64,000 bases of DNA from Patescibacteria group bacterium (GCA_018902845.1 JAHIPV010000013.1:18766-82765), one strand, 5' to 3'; shown: positions 282 through 54,588, counted from the stretch's first letter. Notes: generated from the sequence alone by a model not told the origin. A program made the numbers and translations.

Positions 282-385
282 TAAATTAATTTTTTTCTGT
301 GTTATACTACTCCCATACTATTAAGTCAGTTTTTGTGGGCGCCACCCCACAGCCTTATGTCATTCTGAACGAAGTGAAGAATCTA

Positions 386-407
386 GGCACGAAGTGCCGT
401 TTTTTTT
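386..407 (+). terminator. Candidate intrinsic terminator (hairpin ggcac-gaa-gtgcc followed by T8)
   Basis: 5-bp GC stem with a 3-nt loop at 386-398, directly followed by gtttttttt (400-408). A second hairpin tgtggg-cgccac-cccaca lies at 334-351. Confidence 0.4.
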
Positions 408-469
408 ACATTAAGTTCTAAATAACATATACATTTTATTATTTTTTAACTGATAAATAGTTGTAAACT

Positions 470-739
470 ATGGCACTAAGCACAGAAGAAAAACAAGAAA
501 TAATTGTAAAATTCGCCCAAGTTAAAGGTGATACCGGTTCTCCCGAAATCCAGATTGCGCTCTTATCTTTTGAGATTGAAAAACTACAAAAGCATTTGGG
601 AGAAAACAAACATGATTATCCCGGTAAAAGAGGGTTATTAACCAAAATTGCCAAAAGACGCAGACTACTCCGTTACTTAACCAAGCACGAAGTGGAAAGA
701 TACAAAAAACTAATCAAGAAATTAGGTTTAAAGAAATAA
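470..739 (+). CDS. rpsO: 30S ribosomal protein S15
   Basis: 89 aa with typical S15 sequence (GDTGSPEIQIALLSFEIEKLQKHL..RRRLLRYL). Confidence 0.95.
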   Translation: MALSTEEKQEIIVKFAQVKGDTGSPEIQIALLSFEIEKLQKHLGENKHDYPGKRGLLTKIAKRRRLLRYLTKHEVERYKKLIKKLGLKK

Positions 740-846
740 TTTCAGTACTAACTTGGTTCTGATTTACGCCAACACCAGATTCTTCGTTTACACTTAGGAT
801 GACGCTATAATCTAAACAGTCATTAAAAAATATAATTTAAAAAACA

Positions 847-3102
847 ATGAAAACACACAAGAAAGAAATAAAAATAGAAAACAAAACAATTACCATTGAA
901 AGCGGTAAACTAGCTCCTCAAGCCAACGCCTCTGTCACGGCCACTATGGGCAAAACAGTTGTTTTGGCCACGGTTGTTATGGGTTCGGTTGACGAGCACA
1001 AAGATTATTTTCCCCTTTCTGTTCAACTAGTAAACAGACTTTATGCCGGAGGCGTGGTAAAAGGCAGTCGTTGGATCAAAAGAGACATGTATGCTTCAGA
1101 TAATGACACTTTATCAGCCAGGATTATAGACAGAAGCATCAGACCTCTTTTTCCCCAAGGCTTCAAAAACGATATTCAAGTCGTTGTAACCGTTTTAAGC
1201 AATGACAAGGAAACTGATTTTGTTATTCCCGCTTTTATGGCAGTTTCTACTGCTCTTTTGATATCAGATATTCCATTCAACGGTCCGGTTTCAGCCATAA
1301 GAATTTTTAAAGACAAAGATAAGCTTCTCTCTTGTCCGTCTGTAATTCAACTAGACCAGTCGGATTTGGATCTAATAGTTTGTACTGGCCCCGCCGGTGT
1401 TAACATGATCGAGGCCGGTGCCAAAATTGTTGATAACAAAACCATGCTTGGCGCCATTAAACTTGCCAAAAATCTTGGTGAAAATATAAACAAGCAATTA
1501 GTAGAATTCGCCCAACCAATTGCCAAGAAAAAAGCCGAATTCATCCCAGTCTTACCTTCAGAAGACTTAATTAAGCAAATCACTCCTATTCTAAAAAAAG
1601 ATATAAATGATTTCTTTGACAATGGCGGAGATATCAATTCTTTTTCAGCTAAACAAAAAATTATTGACAAGGCCAAAGAAACTTATCTGGACAAAATCAA
1701 ATCAGGAGAAGTTAATGAAAATTTGCTTGTTCATGCAGTCGAGCATCTACTTGAAAAACAGCTTAGAGTAAATGTATTTAACGGTAAACGCTTCGATTCT
1801 CGTCAAGCAGATAAAATTAGGCCATTGGAGATTGACACCTCTATTTTGCCCTGTACTCACGGTTCCGCTATGTTTAAGCGTGGTTTGACCCAGGTTGTTA
1901 CCGTCAGTACCTTAAGTCCATTGTCGGAAAAACTCCACATGGAAGATTCCGGCGGTGAAGGTACAAAACGTTACATGCACTATTATTCAGCCATGCCCTT
2001 TTCAACCGGCCAAACCGGTAGAATTGGCCGTCCTGGTCGCAGAGAAGTTGGTCATGGAGCCTTGGCCGAAAAAGCTTTACTACCAGTCATACCCTCTGAG
2101 GAAGAATTTCCTTATACCATAATCTTAACCTCAGAAATAATGTCACAAAACGGATCTTCTTCTATGGCTTCCACCTGTGGCTCTACCATGTCATTGATGG
2201 ATGCTGGTGTTCCAATAAAAGATAAAGTTGCTGGAATTTCTATTGGAATGATTAGTAATGGAGATAAAAAATTCACTCTTTTAACAGACATTGCCGGAAT
2301 TGAAGACCATTTTGGTGATATGGATTTTAAGATTACCGGTACAAAAACAGGCATTACCGCTATTCAGCTTGATATCAAAAGACAAGGCTTAACAATGGAA
2401 ATGATCGAAAAAACCTTTGAAGCCAGTACAAAAGCCAGGCTTGAAATTCTAAAACAAATGGAAGCAGTTTTGTCAGAACCAAGAAAGGAGTTGTCTGTTT
2501 ATGCTCCCAAGGTTGCCATGCTCAAAATTCCAGAAGACAAAATTGGAGATGTTATTGGTTCAGCCGGTAAAACAATCAAAGGCTTAATGAAAAAATATGG
2601 CGTTCAAGTGGATATAGATGATGATGGTATTGCCTCTGTTTCTTCTGATTCTTTCGACAAAACCAACCAATGTATTAAGGAAATCGAGGCCATGATTAAA
2701 GAAGTTGAGATTGGCGAAGAATACGATGGCATAGTTACTCGAATAGAGGATTATGGTGCTTTTGTTGAATTTTTACCCGGAAGAGAAGCCTTATTGCATG
2801 TTTCTGAATTGAGCCAAGGTTTTGTTTCTGATCCAAACGCTTTAGTAAAAATTGGAGATAAAATTCATATTAAAATAAGCGGGTTTAATGATAATCATCA
2901 GATTAAACTATCAGCTCCCCAGTTTAAAGCAGCTCACCCAGGATCCAGCCAGGGATTAAGTCAGCCTCACGGCCGTTTTAGTGGAAGAACTATTCCTGAT
3001 CAACAATCAAAATTTTTTCCACCAACCAATAAATCCAATTTTAGGAAACCGCCCCTTCGGTCCAACACCAACCGCATTCAATACAAAAATAATAAGTATT
3101 AA
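847..3102 (+). CDS. pnp: Polynucleotide phosphorylase / polyribonucleotide nucleotidyltransferase
   Basis: 751 aa with two RNase PH-like domains, FGDMDFK-type motif, KH and S1 domains at the C-terminus. Conserved rpsO-pnp synteny. Confidence 0.95.
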   Translation: MKTHKKEIKIENKTITIESGKLAPQANASVTATMGKTVVLATVVMGSVDEHKDYFPLSVQLVNRLYAGGVVKGSRWIKRDMYASDNDTLSARIIDRSIRPLFPQGFKNDIQVVVTVLSNDKETDFVIPAFMAVSTALLISDIPFNGPVSAIRIFKDKDKLLSCPSVIQLDQSDLDLIVCTGPAGVNMIEAGAKIVDNKTMLGAIKLAKNLGENINKQLVEFAQPIAKKKAEFIPVLPSEDLIKQITPILKKDINDFFDNGGDINSFSAKQKIIDKAKETYLDKIKSGEVNENLLVHAVEHLLEKQLRVNVFNGKRFDSRQADKIRPLEIDTSILPCTHGSAMFKRGLTQVVTVSTLSPLSEKLHMEDSGGEGTKRYMHYYSAMPFSTGQTGRIGRPGRREVGHGALAEKALLPVIPSEEEFPYTIILTSEIMSQNGSSSMASTCGSTMSLMDAGVPIKDKVAGISIGMISNGDKKFTLLTDIAGIEDHFGDMDFKITGTKTGITAIQLDIKRQGLTMEMIEKTFEASTKARLEILKQMEAVLSEPRKELSVYAPKVAMLKIPEDKIGDVIGSAGKTIKGLMKKYGVQVDIDDDGIASVSSDSFDKTNQCIKEIEAMIKEVEIGEEYDGIVTRIEDYGAFVEFLPGREALLHVSELSQGFVSDPNALVKIGDKIHIKISGFNDNHQIKLSAPQFKAAHPGSSQGLSQPHGRFSGRTIPDQQSKFFPPTNKSNFRKPPLRSNTNRIQYKNNKY

Positions 3103-3103
3103 T

Positions 3104-3154
3104 GTCATCCCGAGCGTAGTCCTTTTGTCATCCCGAGCGTAGCCGAGGGATCTC
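3104..3154. repeat. Dispersed repeat family A, two tandem copies (gtcatcccgagcgtag.. x2) plus hairpin ctcgc-gaat-gcgag
   Basis: gtcatcccgagcgtagtccttttgtcatcccgagcgtagccgagggatctc; same core as copies at 359, 42227, 46392, 49318, 50457, 53293, 54450. Confidence 0.7.
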
Positions 3155-3182
3155 TCGCGAATGCGAGGTATCCGCCTCGTCT

Positions 3183-3210
3183 TTGACAAATCTATCCTGT
3201 AGTATATAAT
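3183..3210 (+). promoter_or_regulatory. Near-consensus sigma70 promoter TTGACA-N16-TATAAT, 6 nt upstream of ATG 3217 (leaderless arrangement)
   Basis: TTGACA 3183-3188, TATAAT 3205-3210, ATG at 3217. Confidence 0.5.
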
Positions 3211-3216
3211 ATTCCT

Positions 3217-3705
3217 ATGCCTACTGGAAAATTTAATGAAGGAAACTGTGTTTTTAGAGCCTTGGAAAATATTTATGAAAATGCGGGACACAACATGGAG
3301 CCAAGAAGTAGTATGCGAACTATCTTAATTCAGGTTTGTCAAAGAAATGTAGGCCCAAATGGCGGTGTCTCAGCGGGGAACGTTACAGTAGAACTTTCAG
3401 AACAAGGATTGACGGTTGGGCCGGTATATGTTCGAGAGTATAAACCCGAAAAACGAAAATGCAAAAAAACAATAGCCCTACAATTACGCCAAGATTTAGC
3501 CAAAGGAGCTCACTTGATGATTACACTAGTACACCCCAAAGGTCCAGTGGGACACGCAGAGCCATTATTTCCATCTGGTGGTCTACTGCCTAGAGATAAA
3601 AGAGAAACAATAAGAATGGCGGCCATGTCACTTAGAAAATATGGAGGTGAAGCACTTTCTTTTCGTCCAATCCAACCCGAAAAAGGAGAAAAGAAGAAAA
3701 GATAA
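3217..3705 (+). CDS. Hypothetical protein (162 aa, Gly/Pro/Arg/Lys-rich), slightly higher GC than surroundings
   Basis: Intact ORF preceded by a consensus promoter. No family recognised. Composition differs from flanking genes. Confidence 0.4.
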   Translation: MPTGKFNEGNCVFRALENIYENAGHNMEPRSSMRTILIQVCQRNVGPNGGVSAGNVTVELSEQGLTVGPVYVREYKPEKRKCKKTIALQLRQDLAKGAHLMITLVHPKGPVGHAEPLFPSGGLLPRDKRETIRMAAMSLRKYGGEALSFRPIQPEKGEKKKR

Positions 3706-3726
3706 AAATAAGCTATACTTTTCTTA

Positions 3727-4788
3727 ATGCCTACTACTAACTCCGAAATAACTCAAGCCATAGAAACACTAGTTGCCAAAACAAAAAGCATCAGGCTCCC
3801 CGACGAGTTACAGAACAAATTAAACGAAATTTTTTCTCACTTAAAAATTTCTTCCAAATCAGAAGACACTTTTTGGCAAAATTATCAAAAAACCTCCAAA
3901 TACATTGAGTGGATTATTGGCCTCCCTTGGTTTAAAGAATCTCAGGATATATTGGATCTTGATTATGCCAGAGAAAAACTTGATGAAAGCCATTACGGCC
4001 TTTCTGAAGTCAAAGAAAGAATACTGGAGCATATTTCTGTTTTGGCTTTGCAAAAAAACCGCCATCCCGATCAAAATCTTCGAGCCCCAATTTTACTTTT
4101 TGTCGGTTTGGTCGGTACAGGCAAAACCACCATGGCTAAGTCCATCGCCACTGTTTTTAACAGAAAATTAATCCGTATTCCCTTTGGAGGCCTTGGAGAT
4201 CCCCTTTACTTAAGGGGCCAATCGCGAGTTCATCCAGAAGCAGAACCAGGCCAAATCATAAAAGGATTAAGAAACGTTGGTGTCAAAAATCCGGTTATTC
4301 TTTTAGACGAAATCGACCGTGTTGCCGACGACGCCTTAAATACCATCATGGGGGTTTTGGTTGAGTTGTTGGATCCTGAACAAAATAGCCGTTTTTCAGA
4401 TCATTTTATTGAATATCCCTTTGATTTATCTCAGGTCTTTTTTGTTGCCACTTGCAATAACACAAAAAGAATTGCCACTGCCGTTTTGGACAGATTAGAA
4501 GTAATTCAAATGCCTTCTTACACTGATGAAGAAAAAATTGCCATTGGTCGCGATTATCTCTTCCCATCTGCCCTTAAAGAATCTGGTCTGAGTAATGATG
4601 AATTGCAAATAAAAGATGCTATCTGGCCTCAAGTGGTTCGCCCTCTTGGCTTTGATGCCGGAGTCAGAACCCTAAAAAGAAACATAGAACGCCTTTGCCA
4701 AAAAACCGCTCGTCTTATATTTGAAGGTAAAATTAAGTCGTTGGTAGTAGATGAATCTAATGTCAAGGAATTCCTACCCAAATGGTAA
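3727..4788 (+). CDS. Lon-family AAA+ ATPase module only (no N-terminal LAN domain, no C-terminal S16 peptidase domain)
   Basis: Matches Lon from the ILDEDHYGL(E/S)xVKERILE segment through Walker A (GLVGTGKTT), Walker B (ILLDEIDR), VLELLDPEQNSRFSDHF, sensor-1 (VATCNN), LDRLEVIQMPSYTDEEK and the GVR sensor-2. ORF ends at the Lon ATPase/protease boundary. Confidence 0.8.
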   Translation: MPTTNSEITQAIETLVAKTKSIRLPDELQNKLNEIFSHLKISSKSEDTFWQNYQKTSKYIEWIIGLPWFKESQDILDLDYAREKLDESHYGLSEVKERILEHISVLALQKNRHPDQNLRAPILLFVGLVGTGKTTMAKSIATVFNRKLIRIPFGGLGDPLYLRGQSRVHPEAEPGQIIKGLRNVGVKNPVILLDEIDRVADDALNTIMGVLVELLDPEQNSRFSDHFIEYPFDLSQVFFVATCNNTKRIATAVLDRLEVIQMPSYTDEEKIAIGRDYLFPSALKESGLSNDELQIKDAIWPQVVRPLGFDAGVRTLKRNIERLCQKTARLIFEGKIKSLVVDESNVKEFLPKW

Positions 4789-4795
4789 AAAATCT

Positions 4796-5368
4796 ATGTC
4801 CGCCAAAGCTCAAAAACTAAAATATATAGAAAAGCTGATTTCACAATGCCAAAAATGCCAGCTTTACAAAACTGCCACCAACCACGTTCCCGGGTTTGGC
4901 AATCCGGAAGCTGAAATAGTTTTTATTGGTGAAGCTCCTGGCTATCACGAGGATCAGCAGGGTTTGCCTTTTGTTGGCAATTCGGGAAAACTTCTAGATA
5001 AATTATTAGCCAAAATCGGTTTAGTCAGACAAGATGTTTTTGTTTGTAACATTTTAAAACATCGACCGCCCAACAATCGCGATCCGCAACCGCTGGAAAT
5101 TAAAACTTGCACTCCTTTTTTAAAAGCTCAACTGCAAATTATCCGGCCAAAGGTTATAATAACTCTAGGCAGATTTGCCATGAATTACTTTTTTCCGGGC
5201 GAATATATCAGTAAAATAAAAGGCCAGATTAAAAAAATTGATTGGAATAAACTCAAATTAACCATTATTCCTGTTTATCATCCATCAGCCGGTCTCAGAA
5301 ACGGTGCCATGCTCCAGGCCTTAGAGCAGGATTTTCAAACCATTGGCAAATTTTTAGGAAAAATATAA
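4796..5368 (+). CDS. Uracil-DNA glycosylase, family 4
   Basis: CQKCQLY.. N-terminal Cys cluster, GEAPGYHEDQQGLPFVGNSGKLLDKLL, HRPPNNRDP and VYHPSAGL motifs typical of family-4 UDG. Start taken at ATG 4796 to avoid overlap with the upstream gene. Confidence 0.85.
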   Translation: MSAKAQKLKYIEKLISQCQKCQLYKTATNHVPGFGNPEAEIVFIGEAPGYHEDQQGLPFVGNSGKLLDKLLAKIGLVRQDVFVCNILKHRPPNNRDPQPLEIKTCTPFLKAQLQIIRPKVIITLGRFAMNYFFPGEYISKIKGQIKKIDWNKLKLTIIPVYHPSAGLRNGAMLQALEQDFQTIGKFLGKI

Positions 5369-5381
5369 TATTATTAATCAT

Positions 5382-7160
5382 ATGCAAAATATAAAAAATA
5401 CAATAAACACAAATACACAGCCTAATCAAAGGCCACAAACCAAATTTACTCAAACTTTTAGACCAAAAACAGTTCAGAACTCTGATGCACTCAGAATTAC
5501 TTCTCTGGGTGGTTTTGGCGATGTCACTCAAAATATGTTTGTCTACGAATACGCCCCCAGGGGCGATTTTAAAAAAAGTCAAATAATTATCGTTGATTGT
5601 GGAGTTGGTTTCCCCGAAGAAGACGAGTTTGGTGTAGATCTCCAAATTCCTGATACCAAATATCTGGAAGATAAAAAAAACAGGATACTTGGTATTTTTA
5701 TTACTCACGGTCACGAAGATCATATTGGCGCTCTCCGTTTTATTCTTCCCGTCCTTGGAAAAAACATCCCTATTTACGCTCCAAGATTGGCAACCGCGTT
5801 TATACAGGCTAGATTACAAGAACATGAAATTAGGGCCAAAATACAAATCTATCAAGACAATATGCCCATGAAAGCTGGCCCCTTTTTAGTCGATCCGATT
5901 AGAGTTACTCACTCGATTCCCGATACTTTTCATTTTGCCATTAGTACTCCCATCGGTCTCATTTACCATGGATCCGATTTTAAATTCGACCTTTTTCCGC
6001 TAGATGGCAAGTATTCCGATCTTCGTCATATCGCCCGTGTTGGCAACAACAGCAACGTTCTGTGTCTTTTGTCGGATTGTCTTGGTGCTGATCACCCGGG
6101 TTATTCGCCATCCGAAAGAACCATAGCACAAAACTTTGAAAATGAGATCAAGACCGCCAAGGGTAGGGTATTTGTCACTGCTATCTCAAGCAACATTGTT
6201 CGTTGGGGTCAAGCTATAGAATATGGCAAAAGAGCCGGTCGTAAAATAGTTACCGTTGGTTTTTCTGTTGATAGGGCCATTAGTGTGGCACAAGAGCTTG
6301 GTTATATCAAACTTAACAAGTCAGATATTGTCCCCATAAACAGAATCAAAAATTTTCCCGAGAATCAACTAATCTTTTTGGCTGCTGGATTCGCTGGTCA
6401 ATCCAATTCTGCCTTAAGTAAGATGGTTATGGGAAAGCACAGAATAAAAATTAAATCCAGTGACAAAATTATTTTTTCTGCCCCTGATTATATCCCTGGC
6501 ACCTCCAGTGCTATTTTAAAGATAGTTGACCACCTTTCTAAAATGGGAGCAGAAGTAGTTTATGGGGAGGGAGAAAATATGCATGTTTCTGGTCACGGCT
6601 ATCAAAAAGAATATGCCCTGTTAGCAACCCTTCTCAACTCTAGATACTTGCTTCCAATTGGTGGAAATTACCGCCATGTCAGGGCCTATCAAGGCATGGC
6701 TCTAGATATCGGTTATTCCGCCGATCAATTTATTTCGCCAGATTCAGATGCATCGGTCACTTTTTACGCCAACGGAAAATACGATACCAACCATCACATT
6801 TCTTCAAGAAAAATACTCATCGACGGATTCGGCGTCGGCGATGTTGGAACTACAGTTCTTCGGGATAGACGGCTTTTGGCAGAAGACGGCATGCTTTCTG
6901 TGGTGCTTCTAGTTGATACAAAATCAGCCAGAATGATCAAAGAGCCTTTAGTTTTAAGCAAAGGCTTTGTCTTTATGAAAGAAAACACTCCTCTTATAAA
7001 TCAGCTTAAGCAGGAAGTAAAAAAGAAATTCTCGCAGGTAGCTGGCGATCCCATCAATCTGGATTATGTTCGCGAACAAATCCAAGGCCATTTGGAACAA
7101 ATTGTCTACAAAAAAACCGGCCGTCAGCCCATGATCCTGCCCTTGCTAGTTGAGGTATAA
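5382..7160 (+). CDS. rnj: Ribonuclease J (metallo-beta-lactamase / beta-CASP RNase)
   Basis: ITHGHEDHIGAL motif, beta-CASP region and C-terminal domain. 592 aa. Confidence 0.9.
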   Translation: MQNIKNTINTNTQPNQRPQTKFTQTFRPKTVQNSDALRITSLGGFGDVTQNMFVYEYAPRGDFKKSQIIIVDCGVGFPEEDEFGVDLQIPDTKYLEDKKNRILGIFITHGHEDHIGALRFILPVLGKNIPIYAPRLATAFIQARLQEHEIRAKIQIYQDNMPMKAGPFLVDPIRVTHSIPDTFHFAISTPIGLIYHGSDFKFDLFPLDGKYSDLRHIARVGNNSNVLCLLSDCLGADHPGYSPSERTIAQNFENEIKTAKGRVFVTAISSNIVRWGQAIEYGKRAGRKIVTVGFSVDRAISVAQELGYIKLNKSDIVPINRIKNFPENQLIFLAAGFAGQSNSALSKMVMGKHRIKIKSSDKIIFSAPDYIPGTSSAILKIVDHLSKMGAEVVYGEGENMHVSGHGYQKEYALLATLLNSRYLLPIGGNYRHVRAYQGMALDIGYSADQFISPDSDASVTFYANGKYDTNHHISSRKILIDGFGVGDVGTTVLRDRRLLAEDGMLSVVLLVDTKSARMIKEPLVLSKGFVFMKENTPLINQLKQEVKKKFSQVAGDPINLDYVREQIQGHLEQIVYKKTGRQPMILPLLVEV

Positions 7161-7175
7161 AATTCCCAAAAAGTA

Positions 7176-7204
7176 TTGACAATGTTATCTAAACACACTA
7201 CAAT
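7176..7204 (+). promoter_or_regulatory. Consensus sigma70 promoter TTGACA-N17-TACAAT, 6 nt upstream of the antitoxin ATG
   Basis: TTGACA 7176-7181, 17-nt spacer, TACAAT 7199-7204, ATG at 7211. Confidence 0.6.
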
Positions 7205-7210
7205 ATATAC

Positions 7211-7528
7211 ATGCTGTCAACACAAAGTACCAAAAAACAAACAGATTACCTGCAAGTTCGTCTTGATTCTAAGTTAAAACATGAAGTTACTGATATCCTT
7301 TACCAGCTCGGCATGACACCTTCTCAAGCGGTAAAAATTTTGTTTAGCCAAATTAGCATGCAAAAAGCCCTCCCTCTTGATATTTCAATCCCAACTGAAA
7401 GAATAGAAATACTTTCAGACAAAACAGTAAAAGAAGTGGGGCAAGCTTTAAAAGAAATAGGAGAAGGCGAATATACAGAGATTGACATGAGTGATAAGAA
7501 ACAAGTTAAGAAATTTTTTGGTCTTTAA
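7211..7528 (+). CDS. Type II antitoxin, RelB/DinJ family
   Basis: 105 aa. LQVRLDSKLKHEVTDILYQLGMTPSQAVKILFSQISMQKALPLDISIP matches the DinJ/RelB ribbon-helix-helix antitoxin pattern. 1-nt overlap with the downstream toxin. Confidence 0.7.
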   Translation: MLSTQSTKKQTDYLQVRLDSKLKHEVTDILYQLGMTPSQAVKILFSQISMQKALPLDISIPTERIEILSDKTVKEVGQALKEIGEGEYTEIDMSDKKQVKKFFGL

Positions 7529-7830
7529 TGTTGACATTAAAACATAATCTTCGATTTACAAAGACCTATATCAGGAAATACAAAAAACTAACTAAAAACA
7601 ATAAAAAACTCAAGAAACAAATTTCTAAAACCTTAGAATTACTGTCCTCTGATCCCCGAAATCCAAGCCTAAAATCACACAAAGTATATGCAAAAGAATT
7701 TGGTTTAAGATTGAGTTCTTCGGTCTCAGCAGATCTAAGAGTAATCTGGGATTATGATCAAAACAGTCAATTGATTATTTTGATACTAACCATCGGTACT
7801 CACTCAGGCAAAAATAGGGTCTACAATTAG
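7528..7830 (+). CDS. Type II toxin, RelE/YafQ family mRNA interferase
   Basis: 100 aa with a basic N-terminus. C-terminal ..LRVIWDYDQNSQLIILILTIGTHS resembles the RelE/YafQ ..wrliY..d....l.l.rtGtHs signature. Confidence 0.7.
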   Translation: MLTLKHNLRFTKTYIRKYKKLTKNNKKLKKQISKTLELLSSDPRNPSLKSHKVYAKEFGLRLSSSVSADLRVIWDYDQNSQLIILILTIGTHSGKNRVYN

Positions 7831-7851
7831 TAATTGAGGTATAATTACTCC

Positions 7852-42226: not shown

Positions 42227-42262
42227 GTCATCCTGAGCTTGCCGAAGGATCCCGTCGGAATT
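42227..42262. repeat. Dispersed repeat family A copy (cgtcatcctgagcttgccgaaggatcccgtcggaatt), followed by an (AAAAATT)n tract at 42262-42300
   Basis: Nearly identical to the copy embedded in the 3' end of rplM (50457-50484). Confidence 0.7.
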
Positions 42263-42305
42263 ATAAAAAAATTAAAAAATTAAAAAATTAAAAATTAAAT
42301 AAAAT

Positions 42306-46384: not shown

Positions 46385-46391
46385 CTATCTC

Positions 46392-46461
46392 GTCATTCTG
46401 AACAAAGTGAAGAATCCCAACGGGATCCTTCGTCCAATTGATCGGACTCAGGATGACGACA
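46392..46461. repeat. Dispersed repeat family A copy with inverted terminal half (gtcattctgaacaaagtgaagaatcccaacgggatccttcgtcc ... ggactcaggatgacgac)
   Basis: 5' half nearly identical to copy at 359-383. 3' end carries the reverse complement of the GTCATCCTGAG core. Confidence 0.7.
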
Positions 46462-46502
46462 TAAAAATAATCAAAAACAACTTATTAATAATTTATAAAA
46501 AT

Positions 46503-46883: not shown

Positions 46884-46888
46884 GTAAA

Positions 46889-47293: not shown

Positions 47294-47309
47294 ATAATTT
47301 TTCTAAAAA

Positions 47310-47705: not shown

Positions 47706-47711
47706 CAAAAA

Positions 47712-48344
47712 ATGGCAAGAGATACATTACATATAAAATGCAAGCTATGTCGCAGGGAAGGCACTAAATTGCACCTCAAGGGTACTCGCTGTTTGTCAGC
47801 CAAGTGCCCCATTGAAAAAAAAGGTGCCGTTCCTCCGGGCATGCATGGCCTAAAAAGATCTCGTCGCCCCAGCGCTTATGGTATTCAATTACGTGCCAAA
47901 CAAAAATTAAAAAGAATTTACGGGATTCTGGAAACCCAGCTAAAAAATTATTACAAAAAAGCCAAGCGTCTAAAAGGTATTTTAGGTGATAATCTGCTTG
48001 TTCTTCTGGAAACAAGATTGGACAATATCGTCTATGTTTCCGGTTTGGCACATTCCAGATCTCACTCAAGGCAAATTATTAGCCATCGGCATGTTTTAGT
48101 TAATGGTAAGATACTAAACATCTCTTCTTATTCGGTCAAAATTGGAGACAAAATTTCCATTGACAAAAAAACCGCCAAAAAGAAAGATATAAAACCAAGG
48201 GCTGTTGAGAAAGATTTTAAATGCCCCGACTGGCTTTCGCTTGATAAAACAAAACTTGAGGTTAAATTTATTTCTAAACCAACTAGAGATCAAATTTCCC
48301 AAGATATAGATGAAAATTTAATTATTGAATATTATTCAAGATAA
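47712..48344 (+). CDS. rpsD: 30S ribosomal protein S4 (zinc-finger type N-terminus)
   Basis: CKLCRREGTKLHLKGTRCLSAKC, S4 RNA-binding domain. Confidence 0.93.
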   Translation: MARDTLHIKCKLCRREGTKLHLKGTRCLSAKCPIEKKGAVPPGMHGLKRSRRPSAYGIQLRAKQKLKRIYGILETQLKNYYKKAKRLKGILGDNLLVLLETRLDNIVYVSGLAHSRSHSRQIISHRHVLVNGKILNISSYSVKIGDKISIDKKTAKKKDIKPRAVEKDFKCPDWLSLDKTKLEVKFISKPTRDQISQDIDENLIIEYYSR

Positions 48345-48355
48345 AGGAGAAACAA

Positions 48356-49276
48356 ATGATTGATACAAGCAAATTTAATATGAAAACGGTTAAACTGGAC
48401 GCAAAGTATGGGAAATTCCAACTAAGTCCTCTCTACAAGGGTTTTGGCCACACCATAGGCAATAGCATTAGGAGAATACTTCTAATCACCATTCCCGGCA
48501 GTGCTATTACCAAAATTAAAGTCGCGGGTGCCAATCATCTTTTTACTACTCTAGATGGAATAAAAGAAGATTTGGTTGACATTTCCCTTAACCTCAAAAA
48601 AATCAAGTTCATATATAACAAAAACGAACCAACGGTACTCAAATTATCAAAAAGCGGTAAGTCTATTGTCACCGCCGCAGATATAGCTGATACTGATACT
48701 TGTAAAGTTTCCAACCCAGAACAGCATATTGCCACTCTAACAAATTCAAAAGCCAGTTTAGACATTGAGCTGACTGTTGAAAGAGGCATTGGTTTTACTC
48801 TTGCCAAAGAGCAAGAAAGTGAAATCGTAGGAGAAATTATCCTGGATGCTACCTTTACTCCGGTTTTAAGGTCCAACTATTCGGTTGAGTCAATTCGCTT
48901 AGGCAAAAAAAATGATTTTGACAAACTGACCATGGAAATATGGACTGATGGTTCTATAGACCCAAAGGAAGCGCTTAAAAGAGCCACCAAGGACCTAATC
49001 GTTTCCCTGTCTCAAATCGTTGACCCAAAAGAGTTTGAGGAAGAAGAAATTGTTACCATCGGATCTAATTTAAACATCTTCAACACTGATGTGTCGGTAG
49101 AAGAAATAGAATTACCACTAAGAGTAACTAATGCCTTGAAAAAGGCTGGTTTCCAAACCGTAGAAAGCCTAATACAAAATGGCAGTTCTGAAGTTAAAAA
49201 AGCCAAAAATGTAGGAGAAAAATCAATCAAAACCATTAATGATTGGCTCAAAGAAAAAGGAGTCGATTGGAAGTAA
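48356..49276 (+). CDS. rpoA: DNA-directed RNA polymerase subunit alpha
   Basis: N-terminal dimerisation domain and alpha-CTD (IEELELPLRVTNALKKAGFQTVESL). Confidence 0.93.
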   Translation: MIDTSKFNMKTVKLDAKYGKFQLSPLYKGFGHTIGNSIRRILLITIPGSAITKIKVAGANHLFTTLDGIKEDLVDISLNLKKIKFIYNKNEPTVLKLSKSGKSIVTAADIADTDTCKVSNPEQHIATLTNSKASLDIELTVERGIGFTLAKEQESEIVGEIILDATFTPVLRSNYSVESIRLGKKNDFDKLTMEIWTDGSIDPKEALKRATKDLIVSLSQIVDPKEFEEEEIVTIGSNLNIFNTDVSVEEIELPLRVTNALKKAGFQTVESLIQNGSSEVKKAKNVGEKSIKTINDWLKEKGVDWK

Positions 49277-49317
49277 CTTCTATAACTCATCAAAGTGAGA
49301 TTCAGTTAGAAAACACC

Positions 49318-49356
49318 CGTCATCCCGAGCGCGGTCGAGGGATCCCGTGGGGAATT
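49318..49356. repeat. Dispersed repeat family A copy (cgtcatcccgagcgcggtcgagggatcccgtggggaatt), followed by AT-heptamer tract and a family-B copy
   Basis: Composite 167-bp rpoA-rplQ spacer. Confidence 0.7.
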
Positions 49357-49409
49357 GTAAAAATTTATTAAAAATTAAAAATTAGAGATTAAAAAAGTTT
49401 AAAAATTTT

Positions 49410-49441
49410 GGAAATTTAGATTTTAAATTTTGAATTTAATT
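49410..49441. repeat. Dispersed repeat family B copy 3, ends 2 nt before rplQ ATG
   Basis: ggaaatttagattttaaattttgaatttaatt. Confidence 0.7.
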
Positions 49442-49443
49442 AT

Positions 49444-50028
49444 ATGCGTCATCGAAAATTCGGCAAAAAACTAGGAAGAAATCATCATCAACGAAAAGCT
49501 TTACTCAAAAGTTTGGTTAGGGCTGTTTTTACTCATGGTAGTATTAATACCACCATGGCAAAGGCAGAGGCAGTCTCTCCCTTAATAGAAAAAATCTGCA
49601 CTAGAATAAAAAAAGCAGACTTAAGTAGCAAAAGATATCTATATAGATATCTTCAGGACAGAAAATGGGTAAAAATAGTTGAGGAAGCTTTTTTAAAAGT
49701 TTTTCCGGACAGAAATTCAAATTTCCTAAAAATTTCTAAAGTTAAAAAAAGACAAGGAGACGATGCCACAATAGTTAACTTAGCTTTTGTCAAAACTGTT
49801 TCTTTTAATGTAGGGGAGACCCTTGCGGTCGCCCGCAAAAAAACAAAAGAAAGCTTAAGTTCAAAAAATTTATTAGGGCTCAAAAACAAGCTAAAGCGCA
49901 GTTCGTTTCAGGCAAAACAAAAGCAACAATCGTCTGTAGGAACAACTTTTGCAGTCGCTCGCAAAAATATAAAAATGAAAAAGAAAACAAGTCAGAGCGA
50001 ACTTACTCGAAGGGGAAAATCTAAATGA
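49444..50028 (+). CDS. rplQ: 50S ribosomal protein L17 with 76-aa C-terminal extension built from two copies of repeat family C
   Basis: L17 core in aa 1-118 (MRHRKFGKKLGRNHHQRKALLKSLV..). Extension contains in-frame gtaggggagacccttgcggtcgcccgcaaaaaaac (49810-49844) and gtaggaacaacttttgcagtcgctcgcaaaaatataaaaatg (49936-49977). Confidence 0.88.
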   Translation: MRHRKFGKKLGRNHHQRKALLKSLVRAVFTHGSINTTMAKAEAVSPLIEKICTRIKKADLSSKRYLYRYLQDRKWVKIVEEAFLKVFPDRNSNFLKISKVKKRQGDDATIVNLAFVKTVSFNVGETLAVARKKTKESLSSKNLLGLKNKLKRSSFQAKQKQQSSVGTTFAVARKNIKMKKKTSQSELTRRGKSK

Positions 50029-50492
50029 AAAAGATAACAACCATAAAACCAATAAAAGACATCAAAAGATATTGGCATTTCATCGACCTAGAAGGCCAAA
50101 CTCTTGGTCGCATTAGCACAAAAATTGCCAAACTTTTAACCGGAAAGGATAAGGTCCAATTTTGTTATCATCACGATTGGGGAGATTATGTCATCGCTGT
50201 TAATTCTAATAAAATAAAAACTACAGGTAAAAAGCTAAAAGACAAAATTTATTATCGTCATTCTGGTTACGCTGGCAATTTAAAAGAAATTCAATTAAAA
50301 GACTTGATGAAAAAAGATTCCAGAAAAGTTATTTATGCATCGGTTTATGGAATGGTAGCCAAAAACAAATTACGAAAACCAAGAATGCGAAGATTAAAAA
50401 TCTTTAAAACCGCAGATCATCCTTATCAAGGCAAGCTTAAAGGTTTATCTCCCAAGCGTCATCCTGAGCTTGCCGAAGGATCACAAAAATAA
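50025..50492 (+). CDS. rplM: 50S ribosomal protein L13 with C-terminal tail encoded by a repeat-A copy
   Basis: L13 core (..YWHFIDLEGQTLGRISTKIAKLL.GK..). Last 12 codons (KRHPELAEGSQK) are the in-frame repeat cgtcatcctgagcttgccgaaggatcac at 50457-50484. Confidence 0.9.
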   Translation: MKKITTIKPIKDIKRYWHFIDLEGQTLGRISTKIAKLLTGKDKVQFCYHHDWGDYVIAVNSNKIKTTGKKLKDKIYYRHSGYAGNLKEIQLKDLMKKDSRKVIYASVYGMVAKNKLRKPRMRRLKIFKTADHPYQGKLKGLSPKRHPELAEGSQK

Positions 50493-50495
50493 TTT

Positions 50496-50888
50496 ATGAA
50501 AAAATACATATACGCAATCGGCAGACGTCGTAGTGCGATTGTAACTGTCAAGCTTTTTAAAGGAAAAGAAGAATCTCTAGTTAATAATATTTCTGTATCG
50601 AAATATTTTCCATCTCCACACCAAAAGATTAAGTATCAAAAACCTTTTGTTTTAACCAGCCTTTTGGGTAAGTATTTTTTTCAAGCTAAAGCTTCTGGAG
50701 GTGGCAAGGAAGGCCAATTAGACGCCCTAGCCCTAGCCATTTCAAGGGCTTTAGAACGACAGAACCCAGATCTTCGCGATCCTTTAAAAAAAGCCAAGCT
50801 GTTAAGAGTAGATTCTCGTATCCGTCAGCGTCGTCGGGTTGGTAAAGGTGGCAAAGCTCGTCGTGGCAAACAATCCCCAAGAAGATAA
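50496..50888 (+). CDS. rpsI: 30S ribosomal protein S9
   Basis: ..YIYAIGRRRSAIVTVKL.., C-terminal ..GKGGKARRGKQSPRR. Confidence 0.93.
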   Translation: MKKYIYAIGRRRSAIVTVKLFKGKEESLVNNISVSKYFPSPHQKIKYQKPFVLTSLLGKYFFQAKASGGGKEGQLDALALAISRALERQNPDLRDPLKKAKLLRVDSRIRQRRRVGKGGKARRGKQSPRR

Positions 50889-50906
50889 AAATGTTATCCT
50901 AAGCAA

Positions 50907-51653
50907 ATGTTGTGGTATCAATCTCTTATCCTTGCCCTTATCCAGGCCATCACTGAATTTCTTCCGGTCTCCTCTTCTGGTCATCTTGCTATAGCCCAAG
51001 AGCTTTTTGGTTCTACACCTTCGCTTTCTTTCGATATTTTTCTTAACACGGCCACTCTTTTTTCTGTTATATTTTTTTTCAAAAAACAATCCAAGGATTT
51101 TTTAAACAAATTAGTTTTTATTTTTTTAAGCTCTATTCCTGCTGTTCTGGTAACTCTTATTTTCAAAGATCAGATTAGCTCTCTCTTTTCTCAAACCACA
51201 TATCTCACCGCCTCTTTTCTCGTTACAAGTCTTTTGCTTTTTTCAGTCAAATTAATCAAAAAAAGGAAACAAACTTTTCTTACTCCCCAAAAAGCCATAA
51301 TAATTGGTCTTTTTCAATCGTTGGCTATTTTTCCTGGTATTTCCCGTTCTGCTTCTACAATTTTTGCCGGTCTTCTTTGTGGACTTGGCAGTCAAAAAGC
51401 CTTTGAATATTCTTTTTACTTATTCATTCCCGCTTCGCTGGGCGCTCTTGTGTTTGGAGTTACGCAAACAGATCTTGCATCGTTGTCTTTTTCCTCCTAC
51501 CTTCCTTACGCCATAATTTGCTTTCTGGTTGGTTTAATTTCCCTCAAACTCTTAAAAAAAACAATTCAATCCAAAAAACTTTGGTATTTTAGCTTTTATA
51601 CCTTAGCACTCTCCTGTCTTACCATCTATTTTTCCTACCACCAATCTTTTTAA
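50907..51653 (+). CDS. uppP: Undecaprenyl-diphosphate phosphatase (UppP/BacA)
   Basis: ..ALIQAITEFLPVSSSGHL.. N-terminal motif, 8 TM segments, ..PGISRSASTI.. second motif. Confidence 0.9.
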   Translation: MLWYQSLILALIQAITEFLPVSSSGHLAIAQELFGSTPSLSFDIFLNTATLFSVIFFFKKQSKDFLNKLVFIFLSSIPAVLVTLIFKDQISSLFSQTTYLTASFLVTSLLLFSVKLIKKRKQTFLTPQKAIIIGLFQSLAIFPGISRSASTIFAGLLCGLGSQKAFEYSFYLFIPASLGALVFGVTQTDLASLSFSSYLPYAIICFLVGLISLKLLKKTIQSKKLWYFSFYTLALSCLTIYFSYHQSF

Positions 51654-51820
51654 ATCTTCCATTGCCTCTGCAAGTATCATTCTTTCTTCAAGTTCTCTGT
51701 TTAGTTTATTCATAAAAACCACCTGCTCCACTCTCTTTATCTGCTTAATTCTGCCCAGTCCTGTATTTCTTATCATAGATAAATTATTCTACCACTTCCC
51801 ACACTAACCCTCAAATCTAT

Positions 51821-53263
51821 TTATAATGTGTTTACTGCCCTTTCCAGTCTTTTAATCGTTTTGTCTCTTCCTAAAATCGGTAAACATTCTACAATTGGCG
51901 GTGTAATTTTTTGTCCGCTCAAAGCCACTCTAAACACCATAAAATACTGTCCCGTATTCCAATTATTTTTTTTAATCAACTCCAGTAGTTTATTTTGAAT
52001 ATTGACAACATCATCCCAATTCTTAGTTTCTTTTAATAATTCTGTTGTCTTATCCATCATTTCTGTTACCAGCTCTTTTGTTGCCCCTCTTTGCAACAGC
52101 ATTTCCTTATCATATTTAATCTCTTCAAACAAAAACTTAGTTAATTCAACTGCGTCAGACAACCTAGTGATTCTTTCTTTTAGCAGGGGAGCCAGATATA
52201 ACAATATTTCATCATCAACTTTTGGTAAAAAAGTTTTCAACAATTTTGCTAATTCTTTATCGCTTTTTTTCTGAATGTAATGTTTATTAAAATAATCAAG
52301 TTTTTTTCTATCAAAAGCAGGCGCTTTTTTGTGTAATCTTTCCAAACTAAACTCTTCGATAAACTCATCCAGGCTAAAAAATTCTCTTTCGTCTCCGGGA
52401 TTCCATCCCAAAAGCATCAAAAAATTGAGCAAGGCTTCGGGTAAATATCCATCATTTAAAAAATTTCGGGCAGACCAAGATCCGTGTCTTTTAGATATTT
52501 TCCCTCTCCTTTCTGGGTCCATCAAATCAGTTAGATGCGCAAATACTGGTATATTCCAACCAAAACATTTATACAAAATTACCTGTTTCGGGGTTGAAGG
52601 TATCCAAGCCTGTCCTCTCATTATGTGGCTGATTTCCATTAAATGGTCATCAATTACCACGGCAAAATGGTAAGTGGGAATTCCATCAGATTTGATCAAC
52701 ACTTGATCATCTATATCTTTGCTTGGTACCGAAATTTTTCCTCTGATAAAATCCGTCCAAACAATTACCTCATTATCTGGAACTTTCATCCGGATTACAT
52801 ATTTTTCTCCTGCTTTTAATCTTTTTTCTACCTCACTTTTTGATAGTTGCAGGCACTTCCTGTCATATTTTGGTAATTTGCCATCGGCTTTCTGTGACTT
52901 TCTCATTTCATCCAATCTCTCTTCACTGCAAAAACAACAATAGGCAAAACCATTTTTTATCAATTGATCAGTATATTTTTTATAAATACCCAACCTCTCT
53001 GTTTGAATATAAGGACCATATTTGCCACCTTTCTTGGGTCCTTCGTCCCAGTCAAAGCCATAGTCTCTAATTACTTCAAACATTCTTTCTTGCGCTCCAG
53101 CAACAAGCCTTTTTCTGTCAGTATCCTCAATTCGAATAATAAACTGACCTTTGTTTTTTCTAGCAAAAGCATAGTTATAAAGAAGTGTTCTCATGTTCCC
53201 AATCTGATATTCTCCCGTTGGACTCGGCGCCATTCTGGTTCTGACTATTTTTTTACCACTCAT
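51821..53263 (-). CDS. gltX: Glutamyl-tRNA synthetase (class I), HIGH-box His replaced (PSPTGEYQIGN)
   Basis: RMAPSPTGEYQIGNMRTLLYNYAFARK.., KMSKS-like GKISKRHGS, C-terminal anticodon-binding helices. Confidence 0.9.
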   Translation of the reverse strand: MSGKKIVRTRMAPSPTGEYQIGNMRTLLYNYAFARKNKGQFIIRIEDTDRKRLVAGAQERMFEVIRDYGFDWDEGPKKGGKYGPYIQTERLGIYKKYTDQLIKNGFAYCCFCSEERLDEMRKSQKADGKLPKYDRKCLQLSKSEVEKRLKAGEKYVIRMKVPDNEVIVWTDFIRGKISVPSKDIDDQVLIKSDGIPTYHFAVVIDDHLMEISHIMRGQAWIPSTPKQVILYKCFGWNIPVFAHLTDLMDPERRGKISKRHGSWSARNFLNDGYLPEALLNFLMLLGWNPGDEREFFSLDEFIEEFSLERLHKKAPAFDRKKLDYFNKHYIQKKSDKELAKLLKTFLPKVDDEILLYLAPLLKERITRLSDAVELTKFLFEEIKYDKEMLLQRGATKELVTEMMDKTTELLKETKNWDDVVNIQNKLLELIKKNNWNTGQYFMVFRVALSGQKITPPIVECLPILGRDKTIKRLERAVNTL

Positions 53264-53292
53264 TTTACTATTTTATCATTATTTCTATCTAG

Positions 53293-53367
53293 CATCCTGA
53301 GTTTTCACCGTCATCCTGAGTGATCCGCCAACTGGCGGAGACCGAAGGATCCCGTCGGATTTTCCCC
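53293..53367. repeat. Repeat family A cluster (partial copy catcctgag + full copy with internal hairpin ccgcca-ac-tggcgg)
   Basis: agcatcctgagttttcaccgtcatcctgagtgatccgccaactggcggagaccgaaggatcccgtcgg. Confidence 0.7.
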
Positions 53368-53401
53368 CCAATAATCTTTTCTTTAGTTTATAATCAATTT
53401 A

Positions 53402-54442
53402 ATGTCCTTAACTCATACTGCCTACAGTACTAGAAAACTAATTAAATTTGGCGGACTAGGTATTATTCTTTTTTCTTTTGCCTGGTCTTTTCTTGTCACC
53501 GGAATCAAAGCTTATCGCAAGGCCCATCCGCCCAAGCTCCCTCCAACAGTTCGTTTTGGTAAACTGCCACCAATCACTTTTCCGTCAAAAAAAATAGAAA
53601 AGAAAGATTTTGTTTTAGAATTAGCTGATGATAAATTTTCAGAATTTCCCGATTCCGCTAAGGTTTATGTAGTCTATCGACCCACCAGTACTATCTTAGC
53701 TCTAGAAGAAGATACAAAAACAGCCAGAAGTCTTGGTTTTGTAACTCAGCCTATAAAAATTAACGACGGAGTTTACCAATTTCAAAACACTACTTTTAAA
53801 AAAACATTAACCATGAATATCTTAGATGGCAGTTTCAAGCTGGAATATCCATACAAAAAAGACCAAACCTTACAAGGTTCTGGAAAACTTCCCGACAAAA
53901 ACCAAGCCATTGATACGGCCAAAGCCTTTTTGAGAACAGCCGGAAAACTCGGTCCAGATCTTGAGACCGGAGAACAAACTATCACTTTTTGGAAAATAAG
54001 TTTTGATGGTCTTCATTCAGTTTTATCCCATTCAGAAGCCAATGCCATAAGAGTAGATTTTTTAAGAGAAAACCCAGAAAAAGATATGAAAATTTATTCC
54101 ACTAAGCCCGATAAGTCTTCAGTATCGGTCCTGGTCAGCAATTCAGCGGTTGAAAACAAAAGGATTATAGATGTTGATTACAAATATTCCCCGATTGATC
54201 GTGAATCTTTTTCTACTTACCCCATCAAATCGGCCATCCAGGCATGGGAAGAATTAAAAGCAGGTGATTATTGGCCGGCCATACAAGACTCTTCTGCCAC
54301 CGTCTCCATTCGCAATGTTAATTTGGCCTATTTTGAGCCCAGTAGTTTAACTAATTACATGCAACCAATCTTTGTATTTACTGGCGATAACGATTTTACC
54401 GCTTATGTTCCGGCTATATCTTCATCCTGGATTTCAGAATAA
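53402..54442 (+). CDS. Hypothetical membrane-anchored protein (346 aa, N-terminal TM, large extracytoplasmic region)
   Basis: Single N-terminal hydrophobic segment (LGIILFSFAWSFLV). No recognisable family. Confidence 0.55.
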   Translation: MSLTHTAYSTRKLIKFGGLGIILFSFAWSFLVTGIKAYRKAHPPKLPPTVRFGKLPPITFPSKKIEKKDFVLELADDKFSEFPDSAKVYVVYRPTSTILALEEDTKTARSLGFVTQPIKINDGVYQFQNTTFKKTLTMNILDGSFKLEYPYKKDQTLQGSGKLPDKNQAIDTAKAFLRTAGKLGPDLETGEQTITFWKISFDGLHSVLSHSEANAIRVDFLRENPEKDMKIYSTKPDKSSVSVLVSNSAVENKRIIDVDYKYSPIDRESFSTYPIKSAIQAWEELKAGDYWPAIQDSSATVSIRNVNLAYFEPSSLTNYMQPIFVFTGDNDFTAYVPAISSSWISE

Positions 54443-54449
54443 TCTATCT

Positions 54450-54588
54450 GTCATCCCGAGCGCAGTCGAGGGATCTCCCCGGAATTTAAACTTCCATTTG
54501 GGATTCTTCTCCGCCAACTGGCGGATCAGAATGACGCCTTTCTCCCACCCGTCATCCTGAGTGAGTTTTACGACCGAAGGATCCCATC
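54450..54588. repeat. Repeat family A cluster: forward copy, inverted half-copy (ggcggatcagaatgacgcc) and second forward copy, with ccgccaactggcgg hairpin
   Basis: gtcatcccgagcgcagtcgagggatctcc ... ccgccaactggcggatcagaatgacg ... cgtcatcctgagtgagttttacgaccgaaggatcccatc. Confidence 0.7.

Follow-up and report, generated by a model that had tools for sequence, protein, structure and literature searches.

CGTC-tagged repetitive extragenic palindromes (REPs) are small oriented hairpins: an unpaired tag (CGTC or TGTC, or else CCTC), a stem of 8–9 bp starting AT, a loop of 4–5 nt, and a 3-nt tail (PMC3733652). Most form head-to-head (HH) dimers, tandem arrangements are rare, and some copies lie in frame within genes. 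The class comprises families CGTC-1 to CGTC-4, and takes in Neisseria dRS3 as well as two of the Rickettsia palindromic elements (RPE), RPE-4 and RPE-6. It lacks a dedicated transposase, none being adjacent, and no enzyme partner was reported (Di Nocera, De Gregorio, and Rocco, 2013; PMC3733652). Here, a family of short repeats in a 64,000-nt stretch from a Patescibacteria group bacterium (GCA_018902845.1 JAHIPV010000013.1:18766-82765; hereafter, the window) is compared with these REPs and with the small nuclease, Ssn, that acts on similar hairpins.

In Neisseria, the NTS hairpin (CGTCATTCCCGCGMAVGCGGGAATCYRG) and related "Ssn-related motifs" (SRMs) flank ssnA, a 94-aa GIY-YIG gene (Chenal et al., Nat Commun 2025; PMC11893778). 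SsnA binds the hairpin and cleaves upstream of it. Its substrate is single-stranded DNA (ssDNA) only, and only the tagged (CGTC) strand; the enzyme is inactive on double-stranded DNA (dsDNA) and on RNA. For the Neisseria and Wolbachia hairpins, three bases 5' of the palindrome are key for cleavage, and the C just 3' of it is key for binding. In N. meningitidis, the NTS-SsnA pair modulates natural transformation. The authors point to the architecture NTS-ssnA-NTS, which resembles an insertion sequence, and to a parallel with REPs and their REP-associated tyrosine transposases (RAYTs) (PMC11893778).

The window units are a distinct structural variant of this known CGTC-REP/SRM class, with a stem interrupted by G.A pairs. 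They are very probably the hairpin partner of an Ssn-family nuclease. It is likely, moreover, that they are Ssn-related motifs within the CGTC-tagged REP superfamily: oriented DNA hairpins that would serve as Ssn binding and cleavage sites when single-stranded. The positions invariant in the window units are those critical for NTS cleavage and binding by SsnA.

Anatomy and census of the hairpin units

Each unit reads (C/T)GTC-AT-NNN-GA-(inner part)-GA-N'N'N'-AT-C-C/T-C. The stem has five base pairs (A-T, T-A, and three covarying pairs), followed by a tandem G.A/A.G step and then by a G-C pair with a C-GNA-G triloop or by a larger inserted hairpin. The inner part is either G/A-C-(GNA)-G-(T/C)-C/T, in which one or two pairs close the triloop, or an insert of 10–26 nt that forms a hairpin of its own (CCGCCAACTGGCGG, TCCGATCAATTGGA). 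As in CGTC REPs, the stem starts with AT and has nine positions; positions 6 and 7 are G.A/A.G, not Watson-Crick, and the loop is 3–4 nt or the 10–26 nt insert. GTC precedes the A-T/T-A stem start in 12 of 12 window units, and C stands immediately 3' of the palindrome in 12 of 12, although the search expression left that base free. The tag is CGTC in eight units and TGTC in four, and the base before GTC is never A. In other phyla this base is C in 45 units, T in 25, G in 9, and A in none.

Every window unit has complementary bases at the variable stem positions (TCT/AGA, CCT/AGG, or CCC/GGG). Complementarity extends well beyond the window: among matches to GTCAT-NNN-GA...GA-NNN-ATC in 119 contigs of other genomes, NNN is fully complementary in 249 of 272, with at least 12 stem variants. 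In a 114-sequence alignment, double substitutions at the three variable pairs number 56, 15, and 28; 95.4% of cells are paired, versus 84% in shuffles and 17–49% when partners are slid. The loops in this alignment are G-N-A, with all four bases seen at N. Folded as a single DNA strand, the doublet 46388-46465 reaches −14.4 kcal/mol (z −3.1). In DNA, GNA triloops of the d(GCGAAGC) type have unusual stability, as do tandem sheared G.A pairs, which fits a hairpin that needs to form in single-stranded DNA.

The 10-mer GTCATYCYGA occurs 12 times in the window, versus 0.28 ± 0.53 expected, and none of 100 dinucleotide shuffles reaches 12. The regular expression TCATYCYGA...GARGRAT gives 12 full matches, 10 on + and 2 on −. 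Two of these use one common 3' arm, so the matches amount to 11 complete units plus a 5' fragment at 3104. A covariance model trained mostly on copies from other phyla, and then run on the window, recovers the 11 units (E 2e-12 to 7e-4) and a decayed copy at 772-807(−) (E = 0.011). The full census is therefore 11 intact hairpin units, 1 decayed copy, and 2 fragments (3104-3126 and 53293-53309), with zero copies in 3.2–42.2 kb of the window. Model scores are given in brackets below.

359-383, +: singlet GTCATTCTGAACGAAGTGAAGAATC, stem ATTCT/AGAAT, between an upstream 77-aa open reading frame (ORF) and rpsO (35.1 bits, E 1e-8)
778-803, −: decayed unit GTCATCCTAAGTGTAAACGAAGAATC, rpsO-pnp spacer, GA changed to AA and one stem mismatch (15.9 bits, E 0.011)
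3104-3126, +: 5' fragment GTCATCCCGAGCGTAGTCCTTTT, beginning 2 nt past the pnp stop, in tandem with the unit at 3127
3127-3152, +: full unit GTCATCCCGAGCGTAGCCGAGGGATC, stem ATCCC/GGGAT, C-GTA-G loop (46.3 bits)
42227-42251, +: singlet with tail CCCGTCGGAATT, rpsN-rpsH spacer, AAAAAATT tandem repeats downstream (40.3 bits)
46392-46457, both strands: inverted doublet, adk-infA spacer, GTCAT ends outward
46392-46416, +: arm of this doublet, stem ATTCT/AGAAT
46424-46457, −: arm of this doublet, stem ATCCT/AGGAT, TCCGATCAATTGGA insert
49319-49344, +: singlet with tail CCCGTGGGGAATT, rpoA-rplQ spacer, stem ATCCC/GGGAT, followed by ATTAAAA repeats (46.1 bits)
50458-50482, +: unit within the rplM 3' end, part of a 30-nt in-frame insertion
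53293-53309, +: fragment GCATCCTGAGTTTTCAC, just upstream of the unit at 53310
53310-53351, +: unit with CCGCCAACTGGCGG insert, spacer between divergent gltX and a 346-aa gene, polymorphic among strains
54450-54535, both strands: inverted doublet between convergent genes, units 54450-54475 (+) and 54502-54535 (−)
54551-54583, +: unit GTCATCCTGAGTGAGTTTTACGACCGAAGGATC, stopping 4 nt short of the stop of a D-Ala-D-Ala carboxypeptidase gene on the − strand

The units thus occur as singlets and as inverted doublets whose GTCAT ends face outward (46392-46457 and 54450-54535). An earlier note on the window had listed dispersed repeats of this kind. The repeats (25–45 bp) are real and every copy on that list is present in the sequence; the decayed copy at 772-807(−) was missed. 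The copy placed at 46392-46461 is there, as an inverted doublet of two full hairpins. Both forward copies at 54450-54588 stand, and the supposed inverted half-copy beside them is a complete unit with a CCGCCAGTTGGCGG insert, so that three full hairpins (+, −, +) are present. The apparent terminal inverted repeats are in fact a pair of whole hairpin units pointing in opposite directions. The "tandem pair" at 3104-3154 consists of the 5' fragment and then the full copy at 3127-3152, and the "1.5 copies" at 53293-53367 are a fragment ahead of the unit at 53310. Copies 359 and 46392 do differ by 1 nt, whereas the identity between 42227 and 50457 spans 26 nt, not 27. The CTCGC-GAAT-GCGAG hairpin (3153-3166), described as internal, lies just 3' of its unit.

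Rfam 15 at gathering thresholds gives nothing over the units in the window and 16 repeat-rich loci (two unrelated cobalamin riboswitches are the only hits, in loci). At permissive thresholds the best match over any unit, the DUF3800-XI RNA at window 54500-54551 (−), is not significant (13.5 bits, E 5.3, versus a gathering score of 37.8). A hammerhead ribozyme or kink-turn was considered for the CUGA...GA core and rejected: the bases beside the GA steps pair, and neither a bulge nor the CUGANGA core is present. Searching the literature for the repeat sequences gave nothing but chance matches to primers. The unit at 359 is immediately followed by a terminator-like hairpin, GGCACGAAGTGCC plus T8 (389-409), whose C-GAA-G loop is that of the repeat units.

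The adjacent GIY-YIG gene and the spread of the hairpin

In two sister-strain contigs, L004 and L206, the recJ-aspS spacer holds a 98-aa GIY-YIG gene (L004 5543-5839) amid five hairpins, with inverted copies on its two sides. This ssn cassette is present in some strains of the species and absent from others. Where sister strains have the cassette, the window's spacer (57310-57922) contains an orphan 127-aa ORF (57448-57831, − strand) with no Pfam, NCBIfam, or PHROG match. The spacer measures only 5 bp in a relative with 81% identical RpoA. It seems to be an insertion hotspot. Both elements at 54450-54583 recur in sister strains: the doublet type of 54450-54535 also flanks the ssn gene in L004, and unit GTCATCCTGAGTGAGTTTTACGACCGAAGGATC also adjoins it.

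The partner protein is a single domain of 95–98 aa (Pfam GIY-YIG, 1.5e-16). It is 45% identical over 93 of 98 aa to the N. gonorrhoeae SsnA orthologue, with E 3e-32 pairwise and 2e-11 by tblastn. The published definition of the Ssn family is homology to N. meningitidis SsnA at E<1e-10 with >75% coverage (PMC11893778); the values here, taken against the N. gonorrhoeae orthologue, lie within those bounds. At least 7,982 clusters of homologues have E<=1e-10, and among the best 120 nearly all are 93–102 aa. Both the GIY and YIG tyrosines, R30, H34, E67, and N86 are invariant in 40 homologues. A profile search of the PDB finds 1zg2, the UPF0213 protein BH0048; the single protein sequence gives marginal matches only. 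The AlphaFold (AF2) model has a pLDDT of 94.8, and its nearest folds are 1zg2, then Slx1 nuclease domains, then UvrC.

The association of gene and hairpin was evaluated with 80 metagenomic homologues fetched with the L004 protein (57–71% identity, plus the L004 gene itself at 100%). A + half-site, GTCATNNNGA, lies within 200 bp upstream in 67 of 79; a − half-site lies within 200 bp downstream in 70 of 78; and both sides are occupied in 61 of 77. Modal distances are 46–60 nt upstream and 29–43 nt downstream, and the background more than 500 bp from the gene is 0.07 half-sites per 200 bp. Altogether, 79 of the 80 homologues have a G.A half-site within 200 bp. Between its outer GTCAT ends, the hairpin(+)-ssn-hairpin(−) element has a median length of 381 bp. 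The stem TGC/GCA (GTCATTGCGAGG...CGAAGCAATC) predominates among these elements, and gene-flanking and dispersed hairpins on a given contig agree in stem type.

The arrangement recurs in cultured bacteria, there with classical perfect-stem CGTC REPs: Azospirillum lipoferum AZO_p3, Neisseria gonorrhoeae (dRS3/NTS), Shinella, Rhizobium, Neorhizobium, and Aeromonas. On AZO_p3, a gene annotated "GIY-YIG nuclease family protein" lies between sufB and sufC, flanked on both sides by a CGTC-1 doublet; the published table has only two HH dimers for the 648-kb Azospirillum replicon (PMC3733652). A Planktothrix plasmid has the arrangement with the window's own G.A type. The association had already been published (PMC11893778), and is confirmed here rather than new.

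Doublets without the gene resemble the element without its ORF. The conserved spacer of 54450-54535 reads ATG GAA GTT TAA on the − strand; gene-less doublet spacers in general read ATG-GGA/GAA-GTT-TAA, like the ORF-less form of the gene-bearing element, and the doublet in L207 and L210 is the element minus the ORF. In the proposed scheme, the autonomous element would be hairpin(+)-ssn gene-hairpin(−), about 380 bp long, and the window itself carries only gene-less forms: singlets and REPIN-like inverted doublets. One ssn homologue, P0003 (L207-L216), is an identical gene upstream of rimP-nusA, at one locus in 10 listed of 17 carrying contigs. The gene-less doublets beside P0003 vary in number between samples, a single 95-nt unit being present or absent.

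The earlier note took the repeats for a family of this genome. Instead, a pattern scan (one genome per species) found the motif in at least 119 contigs, and the oriented hairpin occurs across many phyla and belongs to the published CGTC-REP/SRM class (PMC3733652, PMC11893778). Phyla among the matches listed include Verrucomicrobia, Acidobacteria, Patescibacteria, Bacteroidota (Hymenobacter), Clostridia, Chloroflexi, Gastranaerophilales, Omnitrophota, Binatia, and Planctomycetes. Inverted doublets dominate: the 5' ends of "+ then −" neighbor pairs in genome loci are 80–120 nt apart in 77 of 133. Viral contigs seldom carry the motif (30 stretches in 2.9 million contigs). Their singlets form 38 concordant pairs versus 1 discordant, a concordance that chromosomal loci do not have. 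Five IMG/VR contigs of GC about 0.59 (L230, L233, L240, L246, and L249) have three to five singlets each, with long inner hairpins, all on one strand.

Recent expansion in one Patescibacteria lineage

The source organism is a Patescibacterium near Ca. Shapirobacteria/Woesebacteria. Three relatives, ranked by RpoA identity, were compared:

85% (L217/L218): some spacers with hairpins, others without
81% (L219, 11 kb): no hairpins; rpoA-rplQ spacer 12 bp, aspS-recJ spacer 5 bp
71% (L221, 21 kb): no hairpins; rpoA-rplQ spacer 3 bp, others tight

The 81% and 71% relatives together provide 32 kb with zero copies. The earlier note held that the repeats occupy spacers that are normally tight, and the relatives agree: rpoA-rplQ measures 12 or 3 bp, rpsN-rpsH 8 bp, and aspS-recJ 5 bp, and adk-infA is 22 bp or overlapping.

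The 85% relative is informative position by position. In its rpoA-rplQ spacer (L217 2546-2618), a TGC/GCA doublet takes the place of the window's CCC-type singlet (49319-49344). In rpsN-rpsH (L218 231-262), a different palindrome, TGTCACCCCGCCAGGGCGGGGTCCCGCCGGAATT, has the same tag and tail as the window's 42227-42251. These stem variants at orthologous spacers suggest replacement or conversion in place, not drift by point mutation. This relative has a doublet in the gltX spacer, and it has no hairpin in adk-infA (where the window has a doublet) or at the rplM end. Comparison of the two rplM genes reveals a clean 30-nt in-frame insertion in the window, adding KRHPELAEGS ahead of the last two codons.

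Contigs 100% identical to the window were used to extend the same genome, which adds three doublets and four singlets. All four singlets are in or at the end of miaA, antisense and in frame, encoding RFLRFGRNDA twice, GSFDRLRMTA, and a new C-terminus. This gene (L254 18596-19750, about 6.5 kb right of the window end) specifies 384 aa, and includes a 60-nt tandem duplication (FDVGILKRVQRFLRFGRNDA x2) and the hairpin-encoded C-terminus GDPSASSG*. In all, 78 kb of genome contain about 24 units, including five doublets that all run + then −. Ten singlets are on + versus one (decayed) on −, irrespective of gene direction. GC skew over 64 kb is uninformative for leading and lagging strands, and 8-kb loci of other genomes show no strand bias of singlets (17 concordant versus 22 discordant pairs). 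For this genome, the 10:1 excess may reflect chance or a local effect.

The unit at 53310 is absent from three contigs of the same species (L003, L004, and L005). Together, the copy-free 81% and 71% relatives, the differences between strains, and the in-frame rplM and miaA insertions indicate that the expansion is recent. Recent turnover, which the earlier note had proposed in calling the family active or recently active, is thereby backed, including by the absence of the adk-infA doublet and the rplM insertion from the 85% relative. Neither of the two filled/empty comparisons (rplM and gltX/346-aa gene) defines a target-site duplication.

Directly downstream of the rpsN-rpsH and rpoA-rplQ singlets lie A/T-rich tandem repeats of period 7–8 (42266-42299 and 49367-49437; AAAAAATT, ATTAAAA, and AAATTTT). 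The doublet of the 85% relative has a comparable run after it; the 81% relative has no such repeats. These repeats may belong to the inserted DNA. Elsewhere in the window, a pair encoding a RelB-type antitoxin and a YafQ/ParE-type toxin (7211-7830) separates the RNase J gene from proS. In the 85% relative, a YafQ-like gene is located elsewhere, between secY and adk.

Alternative explanations and known systems

Assignment of the window units to Ssn faces several objections. There is no ssn gene in the window or in a 14-kb extension of the same genome, as judged by tblastn. The published degenerate SRM pattern, HGTCWYN(0-2)YYVSBRHN(0-5)WNVSBRGN(0-2)RNCYNB (PMC11893778), matches 0 of 247 G.A-type hairpins, none in the window, and none in the extensions L252 and L254. 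The positive controls (NTS, Azospirillum, and Shinella) do match. Of the 80 ssn homologues, a single one has the pattern within 200 bp, against 79 for the G.A half-site. Strict SRM membership by that definition therefore fails. Lone units fold weakly with standard DNA parameters (−1 to −3 kcal/mol, z about 0), although the stability of sheared G.A pairs and GNA triloops may be underestimated by these parameters. Finally, a hydrolytic GIY-YIG enzyme alone cannot rejoin DNA. Since nucleases of this type act without a covalent intermediate, any transposase-like role is hypothetical, and the Ssn authors themselves leave the mechanism and origin of repeat expansion open (PMC11893778).

Because of the homology and the conserved critical bases, Patescibacteria Ssn is on balance predicted to cut single-stranded G.A-type hairpins at a point upstream of the GTC tag. 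How the hairpins multiply is a more tentative matter: possibly through a single-strand intermediate, with involvement of Ssn and host repair. A broader and somewhat more doubtful proposal is that the G.A hairpin (GTCAT-NNN-GAG...CGA-NNN-ATC, including GTCATTGCGAGG...CGAAGCAATC) constitutes a separate Ssn specificity class, perhaps the most widespread, dominant outside Proteobacteria and invisible to the SRM pattern. In this proposal, insertion of singlets as 30-nt hairpins and the 10:1 strand bias would point to Ssn-dependent single-strand copying ("peel-and-paste"-like) on the strand exposed at the replication fork.

Might the hairpins instead act mainly on RNA? As terminators, 3'-end stabilizers, or processing sites in ribosomal-protein operons, they could be selected for that role with no nuclease needed. 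Most window copies do lie in sense orientation between co-directional or convergent genes, such a role has been argued for REPs in general (PMC3733652), the viral singlets are co-oriented 38:1, and a true terminator-like hairpin follows the unit at 359. Yet no unit is followed by a T-run, a terminator scan calls none, and no Rfam family matches. Four copies are antisense in or at the end of miaA, and close relatives run the same operons without hairpins. SsnA does not bind RNA (PMC11893778), and the invariant positions are those needed for binding and cutting ssDNA. This explanation is consequently considered unlikely; RNA-level side effects on operons may arise as a by-product, insufficient to explain the family.

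The remaining explanations concern mobility. If ssn were a free-standing homing-endonuclease gene, it could invade the centers of inverted doublets by break repair, while the hairpins spread by an unrelated route. The precise ORF-less appearance of gene-less doublets, with their ATG-GGA/GAA-GTT-TAA spacer (L207/L210), would fit, as would the presence or absence of the cassette between strains at one locus. Ssn, however, cuts ssDNA upstream of the hairpin and not dsDNA (PMC11893778), unlike known homing enzymes; P0003 occupies one stable locus in the 10 contigs listed of the 17 that carry it; and homing leaves singlet insertions, such as the 30 nt in rplM, unexplained. It is accordingly judged quite improbable. 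The earlier note's term, REP/MITE-like, holds for geometry: the units are small palindromic repeats in singlets and inverted doublets, and doublets with outward conserved ends resemble both REPINs and miniature inverted-repeat transposable elements (MITEs). A classical MITE or REPIN, for which a DDE transposase or a RAYT/IS200-type tyrosine transposase would act in trans, is nonetheless very improbable. No transposase, RAYT, or Y1 transposase is among the window ORFs scanned, and the units have no GTAG tag. The filled/empty comparisons define no target-site duplication, no transposase accompanies CGTC REPs (PMC3733652), and the bracketed gene encodes a GIY-YIG nuclease. Chance or low-complexity similarity of a short core has nothing in its favor, and is ruled out by the 12 occurrences versus 0.28 expected, covariance model E-values down to 2e-12, and strong covariation. 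The similarity is wider than a 6–8 bp core, since the G before TCAT and the C after the palindrome are present in 12 of 12 and the stem positions are complementary; nor is it confined to the copies first listed, further ones being found in the extended genome and the other contigs.

With the repeats read as cognate hairpins of the recently characterized Ssn ssDNA nucleases, and not as a private MITE of one genome, the main value lies in their correct filing, because the kind is already known. Patescibacteria, Verrucomicrobia, and Bacteroidota receive no mention in the main text of the Ssn paper (PMC11893778). Measured against such published text, the additions are the G.A variant, its recent expansion in Patescibacteria, and the presence or absence of the ssn cassette between strains at one locus. 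The variant escapes the SRM pattern yet lies near 79 of 80 sampled ssn homologues, in many phyla, so pattern-based surveys undercount the system. It also supplies new enzyme/site pairs for ssDNA tools. Were the G.A hairpin indeed a separate specificity class, the reach of Ssn/hairpin pairs would be much larger than reported. Expansion in an ultra-small Patescibacteria genome, in ribosomal-operon spacers and in frame in rplM and miaA, yields clean filled/empty pairs for the study of hairpin insertion.

The closest counterparts are NTS and the SRMs. Shared features include the oriented hairpin; an unpaired (C)GTC 5' of the palindrome; C directly 3'; a stem starting A-T, T-A; copy numbers that reach the hundreds in the genomes of some lineages; and the order hairpin-ssn-inverted hairpin, with a single-domain partner of 94–98 aa. 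In contrast, the stem of the window units is broken by tandem G.A/A.G, the loop is a GNA triloop or long insert, and many copies are intragenic and in frame, whereas 2% of NTS copies are intragenic in N. meningitidis.

CGTC REPs share the CGTC/TGTC tag, AT in the first two of nine stem positions, the short C-rich tail, and the predominance of inverted dimers with conserved spacers. They also have in-frame intragenic copies: VIPAKAGI and SFLRKQES in R. conorii, RHPELAEGS here. Their stems, however, are perfect over 8–9 bp with 4–5 nt loops, and their tails are mostly CCA rather than CCC/CTC (CCG in other phyla).

Two further systems are similar in outline. REP/REPIN-RAYT systems (REPtrons) likewise comprise small hairpins in singlets and inverted doublets, one small nuclease gene bracketed by inverted copies, and an enzyme that reads an ssDNA hairpin. 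They use a GTAG tag and an HUH tyrosine transposase with a covalent intermediate, where the present system combines a GTC tag with a hydrolytic GIY-YIG nuclease. Rickettsia palindromic elements are another case of in-frame insertion into conserved protein genes in a reduced genome; most of their families are 100–150 bp, and only RPE-4 and RPE-6 are CGTC hairpins.

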